Positions 16-59,216 of a DNA stretch of 64,000 nucleotides are shown here, in pieces. The stretch spans positions 782 through 64,781 of the IMG/VR virus record IMGVR_UViG_3300009151_000071. One strand, written 5' to 3'. Every line of letters begins with the position of its first letter. Position 1 is the stretch's first letter. Origin of the DNA: a virus (taxonomy: Duplodnaviria; Caudoviricetes). The position numbers and the translations under genes are program-made. The notes beneath the pieces are model-generated. The model was not told the origin of the DNA, did not search any database, and worked only from the letters and a program-made list of their open reading frames with translations.

Positions 16-1011
16 TTAAGTACTCATCTTTGATTTTTTAATAGCATTGGCTAATTGTTGAATTTGGCTAGGATCGCCATTGGCCAATAAGTCTTCCATT
101 TCCTGCCCAAGACCCATTGCAGTCTTTTTAGCAGTCTGATCCATTCCGTTGCCAGTTTGATTAGCATCTGGATTATTTGTAGTTGCTACAGTTGCTTTGG
201 CAGCGGTGCTTACACCTTGTGGTAATTCTACTCCTGCCGATTTCAATTTGCCTAAATTTTGCTGTGTTGTGTTTATTTGTTTTGCGGTTTTTGCCGCATC
301 AACTGGATTACTTGTGCCAGCAGTTGGCGCACTTGTCCCGCCTGTAGTCATACCGTACTCAGTTAATCCTTTTGTACGTTTTGTTTCTTCCCACCGGGCA
401 CGTAACTTGTCTGCTAAAGTCACTGGAGCATCGCATTCACCAACTAATTTAGAGTAACGAGCACCAGCAGGGTCGGTGCCTGCCATCTTGCCTACAAACG
501 TAGTACCTGTGTCGCAAGTTTCAGCAAATTGCTGATTCTGTGCAACTTGCTGACTTGGTGGAACGCTTGCGGCTGGCGCAGTTGTTCCCGTCGGAGGCGG
601 ATTTTTTTCTACCCATTGCACTACTTTTGTTTTTAATGCATTTGGGACACTATCATTGCCTTTAGTAAATTCAACAACATCCATGGATCGCTGACCAACA
701 ATGGCAACATCATGGCCACCTTTTTGTGCAATTGACCCGGCCATGGCGCCCTGTACCGCTAAGAATTTTTCAAGTCCAAGTGTTTTAGCAGTCTGCGGCG
801 TAACCCAGGACATCGATGTAAAACTAACACCATCTGCAGAAGCTTGACCGCCGCCAAAAATACCTTGTGTGCCTCTGTAGTCTGCTTTTAAGTAATTGCC
901 ATCGGGCATTTTAAAATATACAGTACGTGGAGCCAATGTGTCAAGTTCGTTTAACGCACTTTCGTTAAGACGTTTAAAGATGCCTAAAATGTTATAAAAA
1001 TTATTATCCAT
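16..1011 (-). CDS. Hypothetical protein, possibly prohead core/internal head protein
   Basis: 331-aa ORF with low-complexity Ala/Thr/Gln tracts and L/I-x-E motifs (RLNE, GLTE) of the kind cut by T4-type prohead proteases. Confidence 0.55.
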   Translation of the reverse strand: MDNNFYNILGIFKRLNESALNELDTLAPRTVYFKMPDGNYLKADYRGTQGIFGGGQASADGVSFTSMSWVTPQTAKTLGLEKFLAVQGAMAGSIAQKGGHDVAIVGQRSMDVVEFTKGNDSVPNALKTKVVQWVEKNPPPTGTTAPAASVPPSQQVAQNQQFAETCDTGTTFVGKMAGTDPAGARYSKLVGECDAPVTLADKLRARWEETKRTKGLTEYGMTTGGTSAPTAGTSNPVDAAKTAKQINTTQQNLGKLKSAGVELPQGVSTAAKATVATTNNPDANQTGNGMDQTAKKTAMGLGQEMEDLLANGDPSQIQQLANAIKKSKMST

Positions 1012-1208
1012 TACTTAACCTTAGAGGCTTTAACACCTTTAACTATGCCGCCAGGACTTAGTTGATTGGTATAACCATGAAGTCGTTTGTTTACTTCTTT
1101 TTGTGTAAACGTGCCTTTTTCACCTAGTGTTTGCATAGCTACAGCAACACTTGGGCTACCTGTTGCGCCAGCCGACGCTTCTTCTTTAATAAATTCTTTA
1201 CTGTTCAT
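1011..1208 (-). CDS. Small hypothetical protein (MNSKEFIKEE N-terminus, possible internal head protein)
   Basis: 65-aa ORF with TAAATA upstream; stop overlaps next start (TAATG). Confidence 0.6.
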   Translation of the reverse strand: MNSKEFIKEEASAGATGSPSVAVAMQTLGEKGTFTQKEVNKRLHGYTNQLSPGGIVKGVKASKVK

Positions 1209-1229
1209 GATTTTTCCCTGTTACTATAT

Positions 1230-1511
1230 TTATTCGGTTATTGTAAACTCGTCGCTAGAAGCAACTCCATCTACTTGTATGTTTTTAGCTTCAATTCTTG
1301 AAGTAAACGTGTTACTTGCCAATGGCCTAACTTCTACATTGTGTAGTCCCGACTCTAGATCAACAACAATATGTTCTCTAATGTATGTATCTGTGCCCGA
1401 CCATAGAAATGTGCGTTCTGTTACTAATTCATCATCAATGTACACACGATAAACTGGGGGTTTATCTCCCCAATGTGCATATACGTCTACAGTAACTTCG
1501 TGTCTATTCAT
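1230..1511 (-). CDS. Hypothetical beta-sandwich protein
   Basis: 93-aa ORF coupled to upstream gene (ATGA overlap); P-x-Y-x-x-x-x-D-D-x-L motif shared with 2444..2890. Confidence 0.6.
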   Translation of the reverse strand: MNRHEVTVDVYAHWGDKPPVYRVYIDDELVTERTFLWSGTDTYIREHIVVDLESGLHNVEVRPLASNTFTSRIEAKNIQVDGVASSDEFTITE

Positions 1512-3988: not shown

Positions 3989-4717
3989 TTATTCTAGGAT
4001 GACCAGCTCATGAGAATTTAATACCACACCAGGTTTTATCAAGTTTAAAAATGTAATGATACTTAAATCGTTTGAGTAAAGGTATAAATTCCACACAAAC
4101 CCAGTTGATTTACGCAACATCTCTAAACCGGTTGCAGACACTTTAATATCGTCTGTCCCAAAATTACTCAAAAAGGCCAAAAGATTATTTTTATCTTCCG
4201 TGGTGTATCTTCCATCTTTGATAATAATTTTGTATCGGTAACCAATATCTTTTTTTCGTATAATTGCGCCTGAATTTAATAACAATTCTGCCTGGCTGTT
4301 TGCTGGACCAGCTACACTTTCAAGGTTGCCAACAAATGGATTTAGTGAACCAGATAATAATTCAAATAATTCCTCCTGGGTGTTGGCATAGAACTGTATG
4401 TGTGGTTCTTCAACTCGTAGTTTGATACCTGCAGGGTTTTTTCTAATACCACGTACTACTTCCAGCAATGGTATATTTGCATTATCTATGTCTTTGCTGT
4501 TACGCAGACCCCAATAGCCACCGTAATTGATATGCTTGTTCATTTCTTTACGTGATGCTAATGCTTCAGTTAAATCTCCATGGTTATCGATCAGTCGACC
4601 CGCTGGGCAGTATATAGCCACCCTATACAGGTACTTTCCAAAATACTTTTTAGTAGTGTGTTCTACAGTTATTTTAGGATTGAACTGAATCCACTTGGAC
4701 ATATCCATTTGCATCAA
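3989..4717 (-). CDS. Hypothetical protein
   Basis: 242-aa ORF overlapping the end of clpA. Confidence 0.6.
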   Translation of the reverse strand: MMQMDMSKWIQFNPKITVEHTTKKYFGKYLYRVAIYCPAGRLIDNHGDLTEALASRKEMNKHINYGGYWGLRNSKDIDNANIPLLEVVRGIRKNPAGIKLRVEEPHIQFYANTQEELFELLSGSLNPFVGNLESVAGPANSQAELLLNSGAIIRKKDIGYRYKIIIKDGRYTTEDKNNLLAFLSNFGTDDIKVSATGLEMLRKSTGFVWNLYLYSNDLSIITFLNLIKPGVVLNSHELVILE

Positions 4718-6962
4718 TCATTGGTAACGCTGGAGTAAATTGACCCAGCACATTAAATTTAAATACATCTTCTAACCAATCCACTTCGATAATGGTGTGA
4801 GCTGGAATAGTTTCGAACAAAATCTTTTTACTCAGTGGCACTTTAATTAAGTCGCTAATCTTACGACCCAATGGTCTAGCACCCATCTTGCTATTGTAGC
4901 CAACTTTGGCCAGGTGATCTACTGCGACCTCGGTTAGACGAATCTTTATCGACTTTTCACTGAGTAGATCGTTAATTTCGTTAATGAACTTGGCAACAAT
5001 CTTCTTGATACTTATTTCGTCCAGTTTATTAAACTTGCAAATACCATCTAAACGATTGCGGAACTCGGGCTTAAAGAAGTCTTTGACTGCTTTGTCATCT
5101 TCTCCGGATTTTTCCAATTGGCGACCAAAGCCAATATTGTTCTGTTCGTTGGCACTGGCACCCAAGTTACTGGTAAGAATAACAATAGCGTTACGTGCAT
5201 CTGCTTTCTTACCGTTACTTGAAGTAATAATACCTTCGTCCATCAACTGTAACAAAATATTAGTTACATCCGGATGAGCTTTTTCAATCTCATCAAATAA
5301 AATAATGCAGTTGGGATTTTTCTCGATATCACTGATTAACAAACCTCCACCTAGGTTACTATCATCGTAACCAACGTATCCGGGTGGCGCACCAATGAGT
5401 TTGGCAAGAGCATGTTTCTCTTGAAATTCACTCATATCGTACCGCAACAGTTTCATCCCCATACCTTCGGCGAGCAATTTTGCTAACTCAGTTTTACCTG
5501 TTCCTGTTGGTCCCAAGAATAGGAAGTTACCAATTGGCTTGTTCATTGCTTTCAAGCCAGCCCTTGCTACGTAAATCTTTTCTAATACGGTTTCTATTAC
5601 AACATCTTGCCCAAACAACTTAGTTTTAACTGTTTGTTCCAAGTCTACTAGAGTCTTAGTTGATTCGCTACCAATTTGTTCGGCTGGGATCTTTGTGAAC
5701 TTGCTAATAATATCAACAATGTGATTTTTACGGCAAGTCCATGCCATTGCGTTAATTTTTAATTTAGCACACGCAGTATCAATTAAGTCAATGGCTTTAT
5801 CTGGTAATTTCTTGTCTGGTTGATAGCGAACTGATAAGTCTACTGCCGAATCAATTGCTTCATCACTGATTTCACCTCCATGGAATTTTTCAAAGTATTC
5901 ACGTAAGCCACGTAGAATATCTTTAGCAACTGCCGGCGTTGGCTCTTCAATGGTCATACGACAGAATCGTCGCATCAAGGCGCGATCCTTTTCAAAACTT
6001 TGTGTGTATTCTTGCCAGGTAGTACTGGCAAGAACTTTAATGTTACCTTTGGTCAGTGCCGGCTTGATCATGTTGGCAAAGTCTACACTACTGTTACTTC
6101 CAGATCCAGCACCACGCATTTGGTGTGCTTCATCTATAAACAGGATAGTCTTGCCCTTGGCATTTAATGCGCCAATAACATCTTTAAACTTTTCTTCAAA
6201 TTCGCCGCGATACTTGCTACCGGCAAGTAAACTAGCAATGTCTAAGCTATAGACCACGTAGTCACGTAGGTATTCAGGAACACGTCCTTCTGTGATGTTA
6301 CGAGCAAGTCCTTCGGCAATAGCGGTCTTACCTACACCAGCATCGCCTACCATTAATACATTTGATTTGTTGCGTTTAGCAAGTACCTGTGCAATTTCAT
6401 CCAGTTCAAACTCACGTCCTACCACAGGATCAATCTTGCCTTCTTTGGCCTGAACGTTTAAGTTTTCGCAGTATTCTCGCAGGATGTCGTCTGCACGGGC
6501 ATCTGGATTGATACGACGCCCTTTGTTTTCGACATAGTATTGATTGTAGAAATCAACAATCTGACTGCGCTCTAGTCCGTACTTGACAAAAAAGTAACTG
6601 GCATGACTGTTTGCTTCACTTGCGATACTTAAGAAGATATCAATGATTTGTACATGATGACGACCGCTAAACAAGACTTGTGTGAACGCACGATTAAACA
6701 CCCGCTCTAGACTGTGTGTTTTCTTTGGTACATTGTTATCTTGTGTGTTGGCAATGTATGTTTGTTTTTGTAAATAATCTTCTAAGTCTGATAGAAGACC
6801 TTCTGTGTCTGCCCCAAATGCTAATAGCAGATCATGAAATGGTTTATAGCATACTAGTCCATGAGCTAAATGTTCTAAGGTTACATATTCGTGATTAAAC
6901 TTTTTGGCTAACTCGGTTGCATTAGCAATTACTACTTCTATTTCTGGGTTCGGTTGGATCAT
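4674..6962 (-). CDS. clpA: ATP-dependent Clp protease ATP-binding subunit ClpA
   Basis: Clp N-domain (HEYVTLEHL); Walker A motifs GDAGVGKT and GPTGTGKT; GSKYRGEFEE; LIGAPPGYVG; IGF ClpP-docking loop; no ClpB middle domain. Confidence 0.92.
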   Translation of the reverse strand: MIQPNPEIEVVIANATELAKKFNHEYVTLEHLAHGLVCYKPFHDLLLAFGADTEGLLSDLEDYLQKQTYIANTQDNNVPKKTHSLERVFNRAFTQVLFSGRHHVQIIDIFLSIASEANSHASYFFVKYGLERSQIVDFYNQYYVENKGRRINPDARADDILREYCENLNVQAKEGKIDPVVGREFELDEIAQVLAKRNKSNVLMVGDAGVGKTAIAEGLARNITEGRVPEYLRDYVVYSLDIASLLAGSKYRGEFEEKFKDVIGALNAKGKTILFIDEAHQMRGAGSGSNSSVDFANMIKPALTKGNIKVLASTTWQEYTQSFEKDRALMRRFCRMTIEEPTPAVAKDILRGLREYFEKFHGGEISDEAIDSAVDLSVRYQPDKKLPDKAIDLIDTACAKLKINAMAWTCRKNHIVDIISKFTKIPAEQIGSESTKTLVDLEQTVKTKLFGQDVVIETVLEKIYVARAGLKAMNKPIGNFLFLGPTGTGKTELAKLLAEGMGMKLLRYDMSEFQEKHALAKLIGAPPGYVGYDDSNLGGGLLISDIEKNPNCIILFDEIEKAHPDVTNILLQLMDEGIITSSNGKKADARNAIVILTSNLGASANEQNNIGFGRQLEKSGEDDKAVKDFFKPEFRNRLDGICKFNKLDEISIKKIVAKFINEINDLLSEKSIKIRLTEVAVDHLAKVGYNSKMGARPLGRKISDLIKVPLSKKILFETIPAHTIIEVDWLEDVFKFNVLGQFTPALPMIDANGYVQVDSVQS

Positions 6963-35903: not shown

Positions 35904-36230
35904 TTATTCTGGGCTGAAACTAGATCCGCAACCACATGTTGTTTGTGCATTGGGATTTTTGATACTAAAAGTAGCACCGTACTGGTCTTCTTTATAGTCT
36001 ACTTCTGCACCTTGTAAGTAAGTGCCACTCATACTATCTACTAGAATATGTACACCGTTAACGTCAAGGTCAAAGTCATCTTCGTTGGCTACTTCATCTA
36101 AAGTAAAGCCATATTGCATACCACTACATCCTCCGCCTTGTACAAATACTCGTAGCTTGATGCCAGGATTATTTTCTTCTGCTAAAATGTCTCGGATTTT
36201 TGCTACTGCGTTGTCGGTAATTGTAATCAT
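35904..36230 (-). CDS. erpA: Iron-sulfur cluster insertion protein ErpA (HesB/IscA family)
   Basis: [15 protein letters not shown]; [14 protein letters not shown]. Confidence 0.92.
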
Positions 36231-36769
36231 AGTCTTCTATTAATAGCGTCCCAATCAATGATACGCCATATGTTGTCCAGGTATTTGCCTTTGTTGGCAT
36301 GATAGTCTATATTGTATGCGTGTTCCCACATATCAACTAGTAATGCTATATCAGTACGTTTTGCATGATTGCGAATCGTTCTGATTTGTCCGGATTTGCT
36401 CAAGTAAATCCAACCGGACCCTTGGATTTTCATTGCTTCTTCTTTGAAGTTTTTCTTAAAGTCTACAAAGTTAGTATGGTGACGATTAATAATATCTAGT
36501 ATCTGTCCACGAGGGCGGCTTACACCAGGCGATTTAAATTGACCAAACCAGATTGAGTGCAAAAATGCACCTGCTTCATTAAATGATCTGTCACCTTCGC
36601 TCTTGTTGTAACGGTCAACATAACCTTTGTATAACTTGCCGTAGTGATAGTCAATTTCTGCAGAGCTCATAACCGGGCTCAATGCTGTACGACTATAAGG
36701 CAATTTAATTTGCTCTAAATGGCCTTTTTCTTTTGCTTCTACGAGATCTATTGTGTTGCGAATGTCCAT
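36227..36769 (-). CDS. Fe/Mn superoxide dismutase
   Basis: [34 protein letters not shown]; all four metal ligands present. Confidence 0.88.
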
Positions 36770-52605: not shown

Positions 52606-53265
52606 TTACAGTTCAGTTGACACAATTGGCATATATTTTTTAACTTTAGATAAATCCAGTTCCGGATTACAAATAGGAATTTTTTGGAATTTTTTATAAT
52701 ATTCTGATAGTAAATCAAGCTCTATAGTTTTGCAGTAACTTGGATGCATAGGCAAGTATGCTTGATAAACAAAGTTAATCTTGTCTTGACCAAACTGTTC
52801 TTTAAAAACGGTCCCACATCCGTACGGCTGTAATCTTGGATTACGTACTGTGCCTTTAAAATCGGTTCGCCTGCCCAACATACTGTGACGACTTGTGGCT
52901 CGACTTTCTCCGATATAAATTACATTATTATCCAAGAAGTCTGCTACACCAATTGGCGGCCCGTTTTCAAATAGTCCATATACATAACATCCTGGATGAG
53001 CTTTTTCAAACCCCCAAGACTTGTCCCATTTAGCATCTATGTGGTGCCATTTAGTAAAGTTAGTTAGTACAGGTTTTACTTGAGTTTGAAGCTGTGTAGT
53101 GAAAGCAGACTTTCCGCTAACTTCTGCACATTTAAATAGGCTATAGGCCAATTGATCAATGTTCGGGCAGTTATCAAAAACTTTGTAAAGTTGATCTTCT
53201 GTTAAACCGTGATTACCAGATCCAGATCTTATATTATGGGCCAGTGCTCTGGCTAAAATATTCAT
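52606..53265 (-). CDS. GIY-YIG-like domain protein
   Basis: PGCYVY...VIYIGES...R...E...P-x-CN. Confidence 0.6.
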   Translation of the reverse strand: MNILARALAHNIRSGSGNHGLTEDQLYKVFDNCPNIDQLAYSLFKCAEVSGKSAFTTQLQTQVKPVLTNFTKWHHIDAKWDKSWGFEKAHPGCYVYGLFENGPPIGVADFLDNNVIYIGESRATSRHSMLGRRTDFKGTVRNPRLQPYGCGTVFKEQFGQDKINFVYQAYLPMHPSYCKTIELDLLSEYYKKFQKIPICNPELDLSKVKKYMPIVSTEL

Positions 53266-53432
53266 TTAAATTATTGTTGCAAATATTGTCGAGTCTGCAG
53301 AAAATTAATTTGGTTAATATCTTTTTTAGGCTTTTCCAAAATAAATCCCTGATCTAACATAGGCTTTATCTGCGCTAGGTACGTATTATAAAACAACTTA
53401 TTGTTTACTTGATAGCCGATCATATTTGAAAT

Positions 53433-53455
53433 AAAAAGAAGCCCCCGGAGGGGCT
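53433..53455 (-). terminator. Terminator closing the tmRNA coding piece
   Basis: agcccc-cgga-ggggct followed by TCTTTTT on the minus strand. Confidence 0.8.
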
Positions 53456-53672
53456 GGTTGTTTCTGTTACGAGGTATTTCCTACCCTAAGTGGCTGTTAG
53501 GCCGCTAATGCGAACTGTGCGTCGTTTGCGTTTACGTTTTTTGCTTCTACGACCAGGCTCCGTCTTTCTATGCTATGGGCATAGCGACTAAAGTTACCCT
53601 AATCCTAACGGGTTTCACATTCCCGTGCTGTCTGCTTGACTACTTACCGCCCTGTCGAAACTATGCAGGCCC
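53456..53672 (-). ncRNA. ssrA: tmRNA coding piece of a permuted two-piece gene; tag ANDAQFALAA* at 53529..53497
   Basis: Begins GGGCCUG-CAUAGUUUCGAC; UAAAC|GCA resume context; tag ends FALAA-UAA. Confidence 0.9.
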
Positions 53673-53685
53673 ATCATAAAGAATC

Positions 53686-54021
53686 TTACTTATTGCGACT
53701 TGCCCAAAATGCCTCACTATCGGGTGATAGCACATCGCTTGGAACTACGGTATTACCTAGTTTTTTTGCATAATTGTACATCATACTAGCAATACCTTGC
53801 CTACGAAATTTAGGATCGACCAAAACTTTATCAGCTGTTAAGTTTTTCCCAGTGATGCTAAAGATAGCATAACCAACCTTTTCACCTGATTTCGTATACG
53901 CTTCAATATTTAGAATTCCGGGTGTAGTAACAAAGGATCTAAAATCAAAGGCATCAGTTTTAACCCAATCGTTAAATCTAGTACCTCTTTTCAATCCAGG
54001 CATTATTTCGTTAATTTGCAT
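53686..54021 (-). CDS. GNAT-family acetyltransferase inside the tmRNA intervening segment
   Basis: V-x-V-D-P-K-F-R-R-Q-G-I-A acetyl-CoA motif A; S-x-x-L-S-x-D-x-x-A-F-W; own TAAATA upstream. Confidence 0.8.
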   Translation of the reverse strand: MQINEIMPGLKRGTRFNDWVKTDAFDFRSFVTTPGILNIEAYTKSGEKVGYAIFSITGKNLTADKVLVDPKFRRQGIASMMYNYAKKLGNTVVPSDVLSPDSEAFWASRNK

Positions 54022-54044
54022 TTAGTATTTATTCAAATTCCTTA

Positions 54045-54108
54045 TGGTGGACCTGGGGGGATTCGCACCCCCGTCCAAGACGCCTTTCGGCTTGCTTCAT
54101 ACAACAAT
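54045..54108 (-). ncRNA. ssrA: tmRNA acceptor piece of a permuted two-piece gene
   Basis: GAC-GGGGG-UGCGAAU-CCCCC-CAGGUCC-A-CCA: T arm, G3.U70 Ala determinant, encoded CCA; TATAAT at 54121..54116. Confidence 0.9.
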
Positions 54109-54123
54109 AACTTATATTATATG

Positions 54124-54753
54124 TTATTTATTAGTTAAAGTCAATTGATACACAAAACAAATCCGGGGATCTGTATTCTTATGCTCGCTTACTCCATGAC
54201 AGACTTCTGGGCCGTGCATAATCAGGTCTCCCGAACTAGGAGTAATATATTCCTTGTGTATTTCGTCTATGTCCGATGGCAATTTTCCAGTACAGTCTTG
54301 ATCAACAATAATCAAACTGCTACCGCCCGGTGGGTTATTAACATAAAACACAGCAACTAAATCGGGAGTTGTTAATTGATTGTTTGTAGCTACATGATTG
54401 TGACATCGCCCTTGGCTATTAATTTCCATTCGGTTGGTCCAGGACCTATCAACGTCAACTGACTTGACTTTCAACAATTCAGTTGCTTGTTGCTTAATCC
54501 AGGTTAAAAGATCTTGTGCGTCGGGAAGGTTAGCTGGACCTAGATAAGGAATAACTTCGCTAGTTTCGCCTTCGCCGTAGTGGCTGTCCCAAACTTGCCC
54601 ACGATCTCGATTTTTAACTTCAGACAGTTCCATTATGTTACGGATACCTTGATCTAATCCAGCATTGTTGTACCAGTGCTGGTGAGGGCAATGTACTACT
54701 GCAATATCATGGCCAAATAGCTTATACACTTGCATGACCGATTCCTTGTGCAA
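54124..54753 (-). CDS. 2OG-Fe(II) oxygenase-family protein (TIGR02466-like)
   Basis: SWTN, HNH, AVFYV, P-x-x-GDL-x-x-x-P...HGV...R-I-C. Confidence 0.75.
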   Translation of the reverse strand: MHKESVMQVYKLFGHDIAVVHCPHQHWYNNAGLDQGIRNIMELSEVKNRDRGQVWDSHYGEGETSEVIPYLGPANLPDAQDLLTWIKQQATELLKVKSVDVDRSWTNRMEINSQGRCHNHVATNNQLTTPDLVAVFYVNNPPGGSSLIIVDQDCTGKLPSDIDEIHKEYITPSSGDLIMHGPEVCHGVSEHKNTDPRICFVYQLTLTNK

Positions 54754-55879
54754 CTGAGTTCCAATTATGATCGTTAAATGTTTTTAGAACACCCGGTGCT
54801 GGCCTTACAAACTCTTGGGCATGATCAAACGCTTGCCAAAATGGTGAATCGTTACGTCCTGACAAGTAGTGAAAATGCAAGAAGTCGGCAATGTCTCTGT
54901 TCATTGTGTTGACTGCTTGATTGTATTGTCTACGAGCATCTGCGTCGTTGTTTAGTATTCCTGATATTTTTGTAGCCAACAAGTTAAGACTGGCAGTTTG
55001 TACCCAAATGCTAGTTTCTTCTAACGGTTCGCTAAATCCCGAGCTCAGGCCAATGGCAACACAATTTGCTACCCAGGTTTGATCATAACAGCCAGCATCA
55101 AAACTAAATTGCCTAGGGCTCACAATCTCGTGACCGTAATACTCTTCTAACTCTTGATGTATTTGTTCATCGGTAGCACAACTGCTGTCAAAAACATAGC
55201 CGCATCCATATCGTCCCTGTACAGGAATGCGCCACATCCATCCATGGCGCATAGCTACAGCTTCGGTATAGGTTGGCAAATCCACTCCGGCATTGGGTAA
55301 AAAGAACGGCATAGCTCGATCGACTGGCAGTATAGATTGATACGATGTCCATTTAGTAGCATAATGCTTGCCAATGATTAAGCGAGCAAAACCCGAGCAA
55401 TCAAACACAAAATCTACTGGGACTGTAGTTTGATCTTTAAGCACTAAACCAGTAATAGTGTCACTGCCTGTTACAGCAACAACTTCGCTGTCAATTAATT
55501 TAATACCACGTGCTAAGCCTTGTGTTTGTAAAAACTTGGCCAGCAGGTTAGCGTCAAAATGCAACGCTCGATCGCCCATGCCCGAATCTGCTAAAAAATT
55601 ATGATCATAATAATCATTTACTCCACGCCAGTTTACAAAACGTATTCCGTTCTTAACTGTACCACGGGCCTGTGCAATAATGTCTAAAGGATTAATACCA
55701 ATCTGATTTAAAAAGTTTACAAATGGTGGAGTGGTTCCTTCGCCGGCACCTAATATGCCAATTTCACTGCTGGCTATTACAGTAACTTCGCTATAGGGAA
55801 ATTGTGACTTGACAAATAGTGCGGTGAGCCACCCAGCGGTGCCGCCACCAACTACTGCGTATTCAAGATTGGTCTTCAT
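54722..55879 (-). CDS. Flavin-dependent (tryptophan halogenase-family) enzyme
   Basis: VVGGGTAG, GAGEGT, catalytic-Lys motif TVKNGI, FDCSGF, GWMWRIP (WxWxIP), GFSEPLE. Confidence 0.85.
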   Translation of the reverse strand: MKTNLEYAVVGGGTAGWLTALFVKSQFPYSEVTVIASSEIGILGAGEGTTPPFVNFLNQIGINPLDIIAQARGTVKNGIRFVNWRGVNDYYDHNFLADSGMGDRALHFDANLLAKFLQTQGLARGIKLIDSEVVAVTGSDTITGLVLKDQTTVPVDFVFDCSGFARLIIGKHYATKWTSYQSILPVDRAMPFFLPNAGVDLPTYTEAVAMRHGWMWRIPVQGRYGCGYVFDSSCATDEQIHQELEEYYGHEIVSPRQFSFDAGCYDQTWVANCVAIGLSSGFSEPLEETSIWVQTASLNLLATKISGILNNDADARRQYNQAVNTMNRDIADFLHFHYLSGRNDSPFWQAFDHAQEFVRPAPGVLKTFNDHNWNSVAQGIGHASV

Positions 55880-56468
55880 GTATGATTCTAATATCCATTA
55901 CTACAGATATTCTATTTTCTGTGCTTAGATTTGTTTCAACGCTGTGGAATAGATAGTTAGGAAACATAAGTAAGGTTCCAACTTTTGGCTCAACACGGTA
56001 ATAGATTCTGCCGGTGCGCCCTTCGCTATCGGCTGTTACTAAGGGTTCTTGCCATGCTAGATTAACTGAACCTCGGGCATCAAGTAGCAGTAAGTCTCCA
56101 GAGTTAGGCGGGCAGTCAACATAGTAAATTCCTACCATGTCTAGGTCACTGTGGTGATGTGGGGTATCGCACCGACCTGGTGCTATAACATTATGTCTGG
56201 TACGTAAGTCTAAATTGTACTCGGGCCATCGACGTTCTTGTGCAATTGACTCTATAGCATCTACTGTATACTGTCTTAATGCGCTTGTACCGTAACCGGC
56301 AAAGTCCAGGAAACTATAGTGCTTGGTATGTACAGGATTAATCTTCTGTTGTTCGTTGACATGCTGACTAAAGTTTAATCCATCGAGCCTAACTAACTCT
56401 GCTAGTTCCGGCTGGCTCGCTGATAAATCAAAGGTCCAGAGTGGACTACTGAATAACTCTATTTTCAT
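55863..56468 (-). CDS. 2OG-Fe(II) oxygenase-family protein (TIGR02466-like)
   Basis: LFSSP, PHHH, GIYYV, GDLLLLDAR, P-x-x-G-x-L-x-x-FP-x-YL-x-HSV...NRIS. Confidence 0.8.
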   Translation of the reverse strand: MKIELFSSPLWTFDLSASQPELAELVRLDGLNFSQHVNEQQKINPVHTKHYSFLDFAGYGTSALRQYTVDAIESIAQERRWPEYNLDLRTRHNVIAPGRCDTPHHHSDLDMVGIYYVDCPPNSGDLLLLDARGSVNLAWQEPLVTADSEGRTGRIYYRVEPKVGTLLMFPNYLFHSVETNLSTENRISVVMDIRIIHEDQS

Positions 56469-57096
56469 TAATCTTATCTACCACAAGTTGACAGATACGA
56501 TCTTGTTTTTCTGGATCGCTATAAATGCTTTTAGGCAATGTAACTTGAACTACATCGTCTACATAATTTCCAATGCCCGGGAATCTAGTAGCAGTTAAAT
56601 CTTTAATGCCGCAATCAATTACGATAGCATCGTTACCAGCTTCGGCAATAATAGCAGTATCTACAACCAAGAAGGCCTGTGCAGTAGTTACCTGATCTAA
56701 GGTGCGTAAACGGTTAAGTACATCAGCCAATGCTGGCTCTGGATCAGCAATAGGTACAATACTATGACCGCGCAGAACAATGCTGTCTACTGTATCCGGT
56801 TTTAAAAAGAATACGTGTGTTTGTGGAACAATAGCAAAACGGTCGGCTACTTCACGGAATTCGCTAACCGGGGGATGTCCTGCAACAGACCACACTTCGT
56901 AAGGAACGATAATTGTAATATCTCTAGGCGTTCCTGTACTGTCTTTAAATGTAAATGTAAATAGTGTTGGCTTCACCGAAAATGTATATGCTGGCGTAAT
57001 TTGTGCCATCATAACGTCTGTTGGCTCTTGAGCCTTTACATCTACAAATGCCTCAATGCTTTTGCAAGCATCAATGAATTCTTGTAATTGTGTCAT
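56446..57096 (-). CDS. Hypothetical protein in the radical SAM operon
   Basis: 216-aa coupled ORF with GAGG RBS. Confidence 0.65.
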   Translation of the reverse strand: MTQLQEFIDACKSIEAFVDVKAQEPTDVMMAQITPAYTFSVKPTLFTFTFKDSTGTPRDITIIVPYEVWSVAGHPPVSEFREVADRFAIVPQTHVFFLKPDTVDSIVLRGHSIVPIADPEPALADVLNRLRTLDQVTTAQAFLVVDTAIIAEAGNDAIVIDCGIKDLTATRFPGIGNYVDDVVQVTLPKSIYSDPEKQDRICQLVVDKINENRVIQ

Positions 57097-57097
57097 A

Positions 57098-58546
57098 TTA
57101 TTCCTCTACTCGAGATTGGCCGTATACTTCAATATCGTCAATCACTGCAATCTTTTCTGTTATCACCTTAATAGGTATAATCTTTTTCTTAGACTTTTCT
57201 TGGTGGGTTAGTACAGTACCCCAAATGTCTTCACGCTCTGGTGGCAAGTTACCACCTTTGATCATGACAGGAATATATCCTGTCATTTTTTCAATTGCTA
57301 GTGCAAACAACGGAACATTATCACTGTAGGCATTGTTACAAGTGATGTCCCAATACTTGCCATCTAGATACATACAACTGCCCTTGCATAAGTGTAACAC
57401 AGGGCAGTCTTGACAATTGGGTCGATTTAACCAATGTGTGACTGATTTCAATCTAACATTTTCGTAATCGTCTAGATTACCTCCAAGGTGGCTTTCGCCA
57501 TTTTTACTTGTTTCTTTAACGCTTACGTTCTGGCAAGTAACAATATTACCAGTCAAGTCCACAGCAATGGTATGATCGTTGTCCATTCCACACTTCTGTC
57601 CTACGTACTTTGATTCTTTGTGCTTTAATACATCTCGAATAAAGCCATCAATCTTGCCAGTGACACCTGCAAAGTTAATACGGCCGCCAGTGGAGTACAT
57701 GTCATTGAATGATGTTTTGCGATATTCAAAATGTTCTTCTAGTGTGTCTAGGCTGTTGTTAGAACCATCTTCGTCGTAGGCGTCAACCATGGCACCTTCG
57801 CCAATGATAACAGTTGGGTCGCCGGTAAATTCTACAAACCAATCGTATACATCTTTACGGCTGGTGTTACGTCGGTTCATCATGGTATTAAAACTAAAAC
57901 GACCTTGCGGCTTCATCACATTGTAGAATTCCATAAGAATCTTTTTCTTAGCTGGATCCGTAAAAGGATCTGGGCCACGTACTGTTTGATTTGGTCCATC
58001 GTGGCTGATGCTTACATTAAATCCCATGTAGTATAACCAGGATCCTATTTCTCGTGTTAGCAAACTGCCGTTGGTAATAACACTCATCTGTGGACGCTTT
58101 TTCCACGAACTGAATTTTTCTTGCAATGCTTCGGCTAGAGGTTTAAATGTTTTCCAGTACACAAATGGTTCACCGCCCCAGAATTCAATCTTCAGACCTT
58201 TTTCTTCACTGAACTCAAGCACTTCTAACTTGGTCATAAAAGCATCAATGTCTTTTTTACTGGTCTCTGCTGGACGCTCAACAAATTTTTGACTACAGTA
58301 ATCGCAGGAGTAATTGCAACTTAGGCCAAGTTGTATTTTAAGGATACCAATCTTTGTGCTTTTACGTAGAGGGTCGTCTTTGGAAAAAGCACGAACTTCC
58401 GGATAGTAATAACCATCTGGTTCTTTTTCTTCTTTGGGGTATTCATACACATTATTGTCAGACGTAGATAGCGTATTTGTTACGTTGTCGTAATAGAATA
58501 CTTTCTTATCCGTAGCACTACGCTCGGCATGAATTTCAAATTGCAT
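57098..58546 (-). CDS. Radical SAM/SPASM-domain maturase
   Basis: CNYSCDYC (CxxxCxxC), FWGGEP, ITNGSLL, SISHDG; SPASM Cys pattern KCG...TCQ...CQDCPVLHLCKGSC...C; start revised to MQFEIH. Confidence 0.9.
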   Translation of the reverse strand: MQFEIHAERSATDKKVFYYDNVTNTLSTSDNNVYEYPKEEKEPDGYYYPEVRAFSKDDPLRKSTKIGILKIQLGLSCNYSCDYCSQKFVERPAETSKKDIDAFMTKLEVLEFSEEKGLKIEFWGGEPFVYWKTFKPLAEALQEKFSSWKKRPQMSVITNGSLLTREIGSWLYYMGFNVSISHDGPNQTVRGPDPFTDPAKKKILMEFYNVMKPQGRFSFNTMMNRRNTSRKDVYDWFVEFTGDPTVIIGEGAMVDAYDEDGSNNSLDTLEEHFEYRKTSFNDMYSTGGRINFAGVTGKIDGFIRDVLKHKESKYVGQKCGMDNDHTIAVDLTGNIVTCQNVSVKETSKNGESHLGGNLDDYENVRLKSVTHWLNRPNCQDCPVLHLCKGSCMYLDGKYWDITCNNAYSDNVPLFALAIEKMTGYIPVMIKGGNLPPEREDIWGTVLTHQEKSKKKIIPIKVITEKIAVIDDIEVYGQSRVEE

Positions 58547-58553
58547 AGTAACC

Positions 58554-59216
58554 TTATTTTTTGATTTGTTCAACTTTGTTGTCTAATTGCTTTAGTGCTT
58601 CTAACAATAAAGGAATCAAACGTTCGTATCTAACTCTTAGAATATCTGTATCGGGCAAATTAGTACCCAATGCGACAGGGAAATGCTGTTTAACTTTATT
58701 TGCGCTAACACCAACATCACGTTGGGTATCTAATCCTAGGCTTGCGGCCAATTCGTTACCGGTATAATAAAAACCATCTAATTGACGTACAATGTCAAGT
58801 GCGTTTTCAATTACAGTTTCTCGGTTCTTTAGGGTGTCATCGGACCAGAAGCAATCGCAGTTACAATCGCAGTTACAATTATGGCTAGCCGATGCGGAAT
58901 ATGTACAGTTATAAGTACAGTTACAATTACAGTTAGCCTGCAACCACGATTGAGCGTCGCAGTTAGCACAGTTTATAGCGCCAGTGATAAAACAGTTGTC
59001 ACCACCAATATTTCCACAATTACAATTATTAGTACAATTACCGTTATTACAGTTACCAGAGTTATTGTTTTGATAGTATGCACGACCGTGCAACGAATTC
59101 ATATCTGAAACGTTGTCTTTGGTATTGGCTTTAACCCAACTTAGAGAAGGGCTTGATTGTCCCGTTTCTGTTGAAACGTCGCTGAGTGCAATTTGTCCGG
59201 ATGCTGGTAGTGTCAT
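58554..59216 (-). CDS. Cys/Asn-rich protein with C-terminal peptidase S74 intramolecular chaperone domain
   Basis: N-term MTLPASGQIALSDV; 16 Cys in 67 aa; WSDDTLK...ALD-V-L-G-x-Y...GVSA...YERLIPLLLEALK coiled coil. Confidence 0.8.
   Translation of the reverse strand: MTLPASGQIALSDVSTETGQSSPSLSWVKANTKDNVSDMNSLHGRAYYQNNNSGNCNNGNCTNNCNCGNIGGDNCFITGAINCANCDAQSWLQANCNCNCTYNCTYSASASHNCNCDCNCDCFWSDDTLKNRETVIENALDIVRQLDGFYYTGNELAASLGLDTQRDVGVSANKVKQHFPVALGTNLPDTDILRVRYERLIPLLLEALKQLDNKVEQIKK

Follow-up and report, generated by a model that had tools for sequence, protein, structure and literature searches.

A two-piece transfer-messenger RNA (tmRNA) was reportedly described in Betaproteobacteria by Sharkady and Williams in 2004. 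Here, we describe a tmRNA gene of comparable build on the minus strand of a 64,000-nucleotide (nt) stretch of viral DNA (positions 782 to 64,781 of IMG/VR record IMGVR_UViG_3300009151_000071, Duplodnaviria, Caudoviricetes; this whole stretch is called the window below), in which the spacer between the two RNA pieces, or intervening segment (IVS), holds an open reading frame (ORF) for a small protein of the GNAT acetyltransferase family. The gene shares with the betaproteobacterial two-piece tmRNA (Rfam family RF01850) a promoter that abuts the acceptor piece, the layout of helix 2, and the terminal hairpin; unlike the latter, its lineage is carried by phages. The best explanation of the locus, which we regard as likely, is that it encodes a working phage-borne two-piece tmRNA of betaproteobacterial type, in which a small accessory gene has come to use the excised spacer as its expression slot.

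The preliminary description of this locus had taken phage tmRNAs to be one-piece molecules, a picture that agrees with a census of 2014 (PMC4131195) but is now outdated. According to the available text of another survey, the OM43 phage Melnitz carries a two-piece ssrA, and 133 unique tmRNA structures were recorded among 18,146 phage genomes, 53 of them classed as two-piece by ARAGORN and 50 of those coming from aquatic phages (PMC9004378). Two-piece phage tmRNAs are also annotated in GenBank: Menderavirus phages of Stenotrophomonas such as Marzo carry an annotated tmRNA that ARAGORN calls as permuted and that reaches 119 bits with the Rfam model RF04321 (tmRNA_permuted), while Xanthomonas phage BUDD reaches 77.5 bits with the same model. 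The acceptor piece of the window gene matches its counterparts in 19 cultured Stenotrophomonas and Xanthomonas phages at about 80% identity, and the coding piece had no blastn match in 50,697 cultured phage records. Like the two-piece tmRNAs of Melnitz (as far as the available account goes), Marzo, and BUDD, the window gene has a permuted order, an encoded CCA, the G3.U70 pair, and an apparently reduced pseudoknot content. Unlike the spacers of Marzo (57 nt) and BUDD (127 nt), which contain no cargo-sized ORF, its 372-nt spacer amounts to a GNAT gene; the word 'intervening' does not occur in the available text of the Melnitz paper (PMC9004378).

Stable-RNA genes that contain other genes are known from three further settings. 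According to the accessible parts of a 2025 tmRNA database paper (PMC11915505), some tmRNA genes are interrupted in the T loop by self-splicing group I introns with LAGLIDADG homing-endonuclease genes, and the exons are religated into a one-piece RNA. The window locus resembles these in having a protein gene inside a tmRNA gene that is removed at the RNA level (a removal that is predicted here); unlike them, it is a permuted gene with the insert in its spacer; tRNA-processing enzymes presumably remove this insert with no ligation to follow, and the encoded protein is a GNAT and not a homing enzyme. The same source mentions one permuted tmRNA spacer with a tRNA-Ala gene, called a 'unique feature', and another with a repetitive element (PMC11915505). 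These likewise place foreign functional sequence in a permuted spacer, but they are an RNA gene and a repeat; in the parts of the paper at hand, 'ORF' has no occurrence and 'protein-coding' is applied only to the homing-endonuclease genes of the introns. The third setting is the 23S rRNA IVS of Coxiella burnetii, which, in the available text on it, is excised by RNase III and contains an ORF (S23p) under reductive evolution (PMC4990558). It shares with the window locus a horizontally acquired element in a stable-RNA precursor, an ORF inside that element, and excision without religation (again predicted here), whereas the window cargo is under purifying selection and varies between lineages. 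Outside the supplements of PMC9004378 and PMC11915505, which may list phage spacer lengths, no description of a protein gene in a permuted-tmRNA spacer was found in the full texts searched. The two-piece tmRNA itself is a further member of a published class, and the GNAT-bearing, stem-closed spacer appears to be unpublished.

The tmRNA gene is recognized from end to end by RF04321 (model positions 1-213), which aligns with 53497-54106 on the minus strand at 95.6 bits (E 2.8e-17; gathering score 47), far above chance and unchanged in a local search, and it is the only Rfam match in the 64-kb window. With this score on an IMG/VR viral contig, the sequence bears out, as far as it can tell, the proposal of a phage tmRNA gene that is circularly permuted and of the two-piece type. 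The minus-strand positions assigned in the preliminary description to the promoter, T arm, acceptor stem, CCA, G1, tag, and terminator all hold on reading the sequence (Table 1), and the gene runs on one strand from acceptor piece through spacer to coding piece. Limits of the acceptor piece are based on the RF04321 alignment, the sequence, and the covariation of helix 2, with the 5' end placed from the promoter; the predicted transcript start at about 54109 lies 2-3 bases ahead of the first modelled base of the acceptor piece. The coding piece comprises, in order, the acceptor 5' strand, the helix-2 5' strands, a P3-like hairpin, an expanded nested stem-loop domain, the tag frame, and the terminator. 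The alanine determinant consists of G3 (53670) opposite U70 (54051). The promoter is the sole promoter-like site on the minus strand within 53200-54400; because promoter-like sites in the region (2) are not above shuffles (3.7), it is to be taken as a consensus match rather than as proof. Within the spacer, the scan of the region detected neither a sigma-70 promoter-like nor a terminator-like site on the minus strand, in favour of a single transcription unit. The T loop UGCGAAU (54067-54061) has G in place of the universal tRNA U55 (pseudouridine), a variant conserved across the phage tmRNA subfamily, including all long-spacer relatives.

Table 1. Features of the tmRNA locus, ordered along the minus strand (positions are those of the window).
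Feature	Positions	Strand	Details
Sigma-70-type promoter	54116..54144	minus	-35 TTGACT 54144-54139, 17-nt spacer, -10 TATAAT 54121-54116; 11/12 consensus
Acceptor piece, ~64 nt	54045..54108	minus	helix-2 3' strands, T arm, acceptor 3' strand, discriminator A, CCA
T arm GGGGG/UGCGAAU/CCCCC	54072-54056	minus	5-bp stem, 7-nt loop
Acceptor 3' strand CAGGUCC	54055-54049	minus	sequence
Discriminator A73; encoded CCA	54048; 54047-54045	minus	sequence
Intervening segment (IVS), 372 nt	53673..54044	minus	between encoded CCA and G1; removal by maturation predicted
IVS closing stem, 5' strand UAAGGAAUUU	54035..54044	minus	directly 3' of CCA
Mobile GNAT cassette, extent	53695..54038	minus	only window part similar to metagenome locus L245
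Predicted GNAT-family acetyltransferase gene, 111 aa, stop included	53686..54021	minus	in loop of closing stem
IVS closing stem, 3' strand AGAUUCUUUA	53677..53686	minus	starts with the final A of the GNAT stop codon
Coding piece, ~240 nt	53433..53672	minus	Rfam alignment
Acceptor 5' strand GGGCCUG	53672-53666	minus	7 pairs with CAGGUCC; G1 is 53672
Tag frame ANDAQFALAA*	53529-53497	minus	GCA resume codon through TAA
Intrinsic terminator AGCCCC-UCCG-GGGGCU + U tract	53431..53455 (hairpin 53455-53440)	minus	6-bp stem, 5 G-C pairs

Independent support comes from helix 2, for which pairings between the pieces (AGGGCG/CGUCUU and ACAGCA/UGUUGU) had been proposed beforehand; they match the Rfam alignment and covary in 141 related phage genes. 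The second pair of P2a is AT in 120 genes, TA in 12, and GC in 9, and thus paired in all 141; each P2a pair is kept in 115-141 of the 141, with the compensatory types AT/TA/GC, GC/GT, and CG/TA, and each P2c pair in 106-126. P2a and P2c were not among the criteria for picking relatives, whereas pairing in the acceptor stem and T arm was used to select them and is therefore not independent evidence. Of the helices in the Rfam model, the middle one of 4 bp does not form in the window, three of its pairs being non-standard. The enlargement of the region in which pseudoknot 1 would be expected, which the preliminary description had remarked on, is real and corresponds to the nested stem-loop domain, with a 7-bp outer stem and a 6-bp inner hairpin. 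This domain is common to only 6 of 144 related genes among the matches listed, a scope that applies to all figures from the IMG/VR scans given below. In these six sequences, all pairs of the three main stems are kept, some of the changes being compensatory, and 5 of the 25 predicted pairs fail in one or two sequences (two basal pairs and two in a short inner stem among them).

The Rfam permuted model thus recovers the gene, whereas ARAGORN reports 0 genes in the window and the beta_tmRNA model (RF01850) stays below its cut-off. The empty ARAGORN result reflects a length limit of the tool and is not evidence against the gene: in relatives, ARAGORN called a permuted gene at spacers of 70, 88, 96, 138, 175, and 183 nt and missed it at 215, 284, 382, and 491 nt. 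The Rfam search can be affected as well, in that default filters at the gathering threshold missed the tmRNA of locus L171 (382-nt spacer), which scored 97.6 bits with laxer filters; long-spacer tmRNA genes can therefore escape both ARAGORN and default Rfam.

Relatives of the gene were found by sequence patterns taken from the window gene. In the first IMG/VR scan, 92 of 122 loci with the acceptor-end motif had the 5' acceptor strand downstream of the CCA; in the second, 107 of 120 loci with the coding-piece signature had an acceptor piece upstream, the other 13 being mostly cut by locus ends. After removal of duplicates, at least 144 unique permuted phage tmRNA genes were obtained from 239 loci. 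At least 119 viral contigs carry the coding-piece signature, against a single contig in a collection of genomes from 185,579 species, which points to a phage-borne lineage. That contig, NZ_JBBAKG010000090.1 (L244/L248; 23.4 kb), the only one in the collection with a phage-type permuted tmRNA, belongs to a 'Haliscomenobacter' metagenome-assembled genome (MAG) and is probably phage DNA binned into it. The nearest tmRNA relatives are L179, with a coding piece 88% identical to that of the window and a 96-nt spacer, and L219, with a 67-nt spacer.

The tag frame ANDAQFALAA is unique in the window and has no match in 100 shuffles; with its LAA end, it fits the family pattern ANDxxFALAA, as do the tags of relatives (ANDSQFALAA, ANDSRFALAA, ANDSKFALAA, ANDELFALAA). 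As a clue to the host the exact tag fails, since a degenerate ANDAQFALAA pattern gave 0 matches in the 185,579 species genomes. The looser pattern ANDxQFALAA matched 44 bacterial genome loci (Rhodocyclaceae, Limnobacter, Pasteurellaceae, and others), only one of which, the phage-like MAG contig, has a T arm and CCA upstream of the tag and thus the permuted layout; the tag points to no specific host.

The length and position of the 372-nt intervening segment stand as first described; its description as a plain spacer does not, because it holds a GNAT gene cassette that had been missed. Most spacers of the at least 144 unique genes measure 55-96 nt. The window IVS is the longest of the 92 permuted layouts of the first scan, a dubious 765-nt case aside, and in the second scan only spacers of 382 and 491 nt are longer. 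Its ends form a 10-bp duplex of -7.8 kcal/mol (z -3.5 against shuffles), which is present in both the minimum-free-energy and the centroid fold of the whole IVS and is separated from G1 by UGAU (53676-53673); the motif TCTTT(A)TGAT ahead of G1 is conserved across relatives. When the first 16 nt of related spacers of at least 40 nt were tested against their last 20 nt, the end duplex reached -6 kcal/mol or lower in 118 of 127 spacers, with a mean of -10.9 against -4.35 for shuffles and z at or below -2 in 106 of the 127. Since the stem sequences differ between lineages, the stem is conserved as a structure.

The ORF in the loop of this stem covers 336 of the 372 nt of the IVS, a length reached by none of 200 IVS shuffles. 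It matches the Pfam families PF13508 (28.5 bits, cut-off 27) and PF00583 (26.6 bits, cut-off 20.7), as well as PHROG 3810 'acetyltransferase' (E 1.3e-4), and has four homologues of 111-114 amino acids (aa) at 65-97% identity in which the length is kept; its ratio of nonsynonymous to synonymous change (pN/pS), computed against the L245 copy, is 0.27. A confident AlphaFold2 model of the protein (pLDDT 80.6, pTM 0.70) was compared with the PDB by Foldseek. Among the matches listed, all have the acyl-CoA N-acyltransferase fold and nearly all are named acetyltransferases, with TMq values up to 0.57 and only two matches reaching E 0.001; they include AAC(6')-Iy (TMq 0.57), RibT (TMq 0.56), and YjdJ. 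The N-terminal helices of full-size GNATs are missing from the window protein, as they are from RibT and YjdJ. GNATs bind acetyl-CoA through a beta4-alpha3 motif, R/Q-x-x-G-x-G/A, and the residues R73-R74-Q75-G76-I77-A78 fit this motif, G76 and A78 being nearly invariant in 30 homologues. By profile and model, the spacer ORF is thus a GNAT-fold acetyltransferase-family gene under purifying selection. Its predicted fold is that of mini-GNAT modules and of the minimal GNATs RibT and YjdJ; unlike the modules found in giant proteins, it would be a stand-alone protein of 111 aa.

A search with the GNAT (phmmer/HMMER) returned 516 representatives at E <= 0.001, and many of these relatives are repeated modules in proteins of 1,000-3,400 aa with NUDIX, DUF3293, or SAM-lyase domains. 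Such giant proteins, from phages and other mobile elements, are presumably of the kind called 'polyvalent'; a match to ART-PolyVal in protein P0006 has 26.6 bits, below the cut-off of 31.2. Because the module is common in giant multi-domain proteins, some with NUDIX or SAM-lyase domains, the GNAT is probably an enzyme of host takeover or counter-defence, rather than a translation factor or a cofactor of the tmRNA. The spacer contains a single ORF and its neighbours are the two tmRNA pieces, leaving no antitoxin-like partner ORF there. TacAT and AtaRT are GNAT toxin-antitoxin modules with an adjacent small antitoxin gene in the same operon, and the window GNAT differs from them in this respect. 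An example of a mini-GNAT embedded in a giant protein is found in IMGVR_UViG_3300033068_000961 (locus L005, 1555-5742, plus strand), whose 1,395-aa phage protein has a module 54% identical to the 40 C-terminal residues of the window GNAT.

The GNAT gene is part of a cassette that recurs elsewhere. The metagenome locus L245 matches the window by blastn at 91.1% identity over 347 nt and has no other blastn or tblastx match to it; it contains no tmRNA at the Rfam gathering threshold, and its flanks are unrelated to those of the window. As the same cassette occurs in L245 without a tmRNA and the near relative L179 has a spacer of only 96 nt, the GNAT is cargo and not an ancestral part of the spacer, and this comparison of contexts indicates that the cassette is mobile between them. 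Further copies were sought with a 23-nt exact segment, which gave 0 matches in viral contigs, and with protein patterns, which recovered only L245 and the GNAT-like domain of the 1,395-aa phage protein (L005/L246). Next to the cassette in L245 lies a 199-aa ORF (781-1380, minus strand) whose N-terminus looks GIY-YIG-like by eye. Its assignment as a GIY-YIG homing endonuclease was rejected, as the motif was seen by eye, Pfam gave NUMOD3 at E 0.069, and the PHROG matches are families of no assigned function. In the window, the ORF that lies downstream of the tmRNA gene (52606-53265) matches no family and is not similar to this L245 neighbour; together, these results do not support a homing mechanism for the cassette.

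Use of the spacer as a cargo site is not confined to the window. Spacers of at least 130 nt are present in 22 of the at least 144 unique genes, and a same-strand ORF covers at least 70% of the spacer in 16 of these 22, while ORFs on the opposite strand do so in 2 of 22; for each of the 16 cargo ORFs, an ORF as long as the observed one arises in at most 1% of shuffles. Shorter ORFs for membrane peptides are present in two further long spacers of the 22. The cargo falls into at least 10 kinds with no relation to each other, Cys-rich proteins, membrane peptides, and a 151-aa protein among them; one cargo is a CxxCxxCC protein (PF03692, 26.6 bits). Six cargo families (GNAT included) have two diverged copies each, with pN/pS of 0.15-0.31. 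Homology among the cargo was considered and rejected for the L178 type, which has a probability of 3% against the GNAT profile; for the L171 type, the hhalign probability is 29%. Spacers of 60-100 nt show a same-strand ORF over at least 70% of their length in 10 of 79 cases, against 0 of 79 on the opposite strand, and these short ORFs may be micro-peptide genes or a by-product of the Shine-Dalgarno-like 5' end.

Three apparently different cargo proteins begin with M-[RQ]-I-[NT]-E-[IV] (window 54021-54004; L171, L178, L201, L245; P0002-P0004), and a leader TTGA(A)TAAATA(C/T)TANATG is common to the window, L178, and L245. The shared start and leader could mark a junction left by recombination, serve in initiation, or reflect an N-terminal function that the proteins have in common. 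A general role of the leader as promoter or gene-start signal in this phage is not supported: it has 5 loose matches against 2.05 expected, of which only one other stands before an ORF. A sequence similar to the leader of the GNAT cassette, AAATAAATACTATATG, precedes a Fe/Mn superoxide dismutase-like ORF of 180 aa (36227-36769, minus strand; Sod_Fe_C, 80.7 bits).

The likely reading given at the outset builds on the gene anatomy, the covariation, the selection on the ORF, and the mobility of the cassette, all of which are observed in this analysis, and it can be put as follows. A single precursor of about 675 nt would run from the promoter (54144-54116) to the terminator (53455-53440), and helix 2, with the 10-bp stem closing the spacer, would bring the acceptor strands together across the 372 nt between them. 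Host RNase P would then cut ahead of G1 (53672), and the host 3' pathway would free the encoded CCA (54045), leaving two paired RNAs, the acceptor RNA with about 64 nt and the coding RNA with about 240 nt. The product would be charged by host alanyl-tRNA synthetase (AlaRS) via G3.U70 and, with host SmpB, would rescue stalled ribosomes and add (A)ANDAQFALAA, a degron of the ClpXP/ClpAP type. The 111-aa GNAT cassette would have reached the spacer loop by recombination, and, transcribed from the tmRNA promoter, the GNAT would be translated on the precursor, on the stem-clamped spacer RNA after its excision, or on both.

Several points weigh against this reading. We infer its steps of co-transcription, cleavage at the stated sites, charging, tagging, and GNAT translation from the features above. 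The ATG at 54021 is not preceded by a good Shine-Dalgarno sequence at normal spacing, as the AAGGA at 54043-54039 lies 17 nt upstream of it and inside the closing stem. Four metatranscriptomes were used as contigs only, in which uncovered regions say nothing. On the favourable side, a lake metatranscriptome (X1) contains two pieces of 151 nt that match exactly, the first within the GNAT ORF and the second across the junction of spacer and coding piece; these are, however, contigs of depth 2 that could be DNA carry-over, and the piece across 53672/53673 is, if RNA, the unprocessed form. Pieces of high depth over the tag region derive from relatives, given their mismatches and loose ends, and a 'joint' in X4 from 53680 to 54042 was rejected as evidence of processing because unknown letters stand between its sides, which most likely identifies a short-spacer relative. 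Upstream of the resume codon, there are a P3-like hairpin and the nested covarying domain, and a classical pseudoknot 1 is not demonstrated. RF01850 aligns with the coding piece only, at 50.4 bits against a cut-off of 84, as the alignment is broken by the long spacer; L179, the nearest relative with a short spacer, reaches 123.5 bits, and by this comparison the tmRNA lineage is of the betaproteobacterial type even though the window gene on its own fails RF01850. The 64.8-kb fragment, which amounts to about 18% of the genome, encodes neither SmpB nor ClpP, so that function of the tmRNA would depend on the host; with a record this incomplete, their absence from the whole phage is not shown. Proportions among relatives, finally, come from the matches listed for patterns of the window gene and are not population frequencies.

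It is unlikely, in our judgement, that the spacer ORF is transcribed in the precursor and left untranslated, as a passenger or decaying selfish insert like the S23p ORF of Coxiella beside which the tmRNA works regardless. The sole AAGGA, out of place in the closing stem, would fit such a passenger, and so would a published analogue, the Coxiella IVS, whose protein is suggested not to be made in vivo and whose RNA is rapidly degraded after excision, according to the available text (PMC4990558). Yet the low pN/pS was obtained against a copy 8% diverged at the nucleotide level, the four homologues keep length and motifs down to 65% identity, five other cargo families in the same slot have pN/pS of 0.15-0.31, and in many relatives the AAGGA of the 5' strand of the stem stands 5-7 nt ahead of the cargo ATG; selection could still act mainly on copies outside tmRNA genes, such as that of L245. 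We hold it to be quite unlikely that the insertion crippled the tmRNA, with the halves too distant or the acceptor stem unfolded by translation, so that little or no mature tmRNA is made and the gene is heading to loss. Such damage would be in keeping with a spacer 4-6 times the usual 55-96 nt, with an insertion that looks recent (91% nucleotide identity to L245), with a stop codon that abuts the closing stem, so that a terminating ribosome would open it, and with the uncut form of the sole RNA-library piece at the junction. It is countered by the integrity of all elements (95.6 bits with RF04321, against 77-119 for other phage genes), by the closing stem and conserved UGAU leader preserved around the insert, and by independent lineages that keep cargo of 138-491 nt beside an intact tmRNA in diverged copies (L171/L201, L129/L144, L047/L093), which speaks for long-term coexistence.

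Two other arrangements would separate or join the genes differently. The acceptor RNA might come from the sigma-70 promoter, and the GNAT together with the coding piece from a phage-specific promoter in the spacer; this we find highly improbable. The leader AATAAATAC ahead of the GNAT ATG resembles what we take to be a T4-type late promoter, its pattern is shared with L178 and with L245, that is, even without a tmRNA context, and the promoter scan covered sigma-70-type sites only. Against separate units stand the lack of a terminator-like site after the acceptor piece in that scan, the leader matches given above, by which a general gene-start signal in this phage is not supported, the fact that most cargo-bearing relatives are without the leader and have their ATG 9-13 nt past the CCA, and the closing stem, which argues for a single folded precursor. 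The least plausible proposal, to which we give hardly any weight, ties the GNAT to the tmRNA as one translation-control module in which it would acetylate Ala-tmRNA, aminoacyl-tRNAs, or tagged proteins. The GNAT toxins TacT, AtaT, and ItaT do acetylate aminoacyl-tRNA, nesting guarantees co-expression, and the second cargo type (L171/L201) may, at the hhalign probability already given, be a distant GNAT. The same cassette occurs without a tmRNA in L245, however, the slot holds at least 10 unrelated kinds of cargo, relatives are located in giant NUDIX/SAM-lyase multi-domain proteins rather than in translation contexts, and no antitoxin-like partner ORF is present in the spacer.

The window comprises 64,000 of the 64,781 bases of the IMG/VR viral record, for which CheckV estimates a completeness of 18%, implying a genome of roughly 350 kb. 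Of its 102 greedy ORFs, 90 are on the minus strand, and PHROG matches include a clamp loader, a DNA ligase, and an AAA+ protein, the clamp loader being nearest to those of PA5oct-like Pseudomonas jumbo phages (56% identity). Placement of the gene in a phage holds because the contig is an IMG/VR viral one with phage replication genes and a PA5oct-like clamp loader. Metatranscriptomes with parts of the tmRNA locus come from lakes and other fresh water, and the tmRNA gene is carried by an uncultured freshwater giant phage. Elsewhere in the window, a 762-aa double AAA+ unfoldase of ClpA/ClpB type is encoded at 4674-6962 (minus strand), with the domains Clp_N, AAA_lid_9, AAA_2 (180 bits), and ClpB_D2-small and the PHROG label 'ATP-dependent protease'. 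In E. coli, ssrA-tagged proteins are handled by ClpA-type unfoldases, and through this unfoldase the phage may bring part of the degradation side too. Immediately upstream of the tmRNA promoter, a run of modification-type enzymes extends over 54124-58573 (minus strand), consisting of a 2OG-Fe(II) oxygenase-like ORF (26.9 bits, slightly below cut-off), a flavoenzyme of the tryptophan-halogenase family (307.8 bits), a second 2OG-Fe(II) oxygenase (61.3 bits), a 216-aa ORF without assignment, and a 491-aa radical-SAM-like protein (29.1 bits, cut-off 29.5); this run may be a jumbo-phage cluster for the modification of peptides or metabolites.

The worth of the tmRNA as such lies mainly in annotation, as ARAGORN misses it together with all tested relatives whose spacers exceed about 200 nt. 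What is unusual is the spacer: textbooks treat it as RNA to be discarded, yet it carries protein genes under selection, in this case a mobile GNAT cassette. A bolder idea, which we put forward tentatively and would not yet favour, is that the stem-closed spacer is a dedicated, exchangeable expression slot: the very strongly transcribed precursor would double as a messenger, tRNA enzymes would release a stem-clamped mini-mRNA (here for the GNAT as a host-takeover enzyme) while making the rescue RNA, and the conserved flanks would allow cargo to be swapped by homologous recombination. If true, maturation of a non-coding RNA and expression of a protein would be mechanistically coupled in a way not described for tmRNA. 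The locus raises the questions of whether a stable-RNA precursor can serve as mRNA, whether translation competes with folding and RNase P cleavage, whether an excised stem-closed spacer is a protected message, and whether the flanks of RNA genes act as recombination anchors for the exchange of accessory genes. For the phages concerned, such spacers are places where small genes, including possible counter-defence enzymes, escape annotation.

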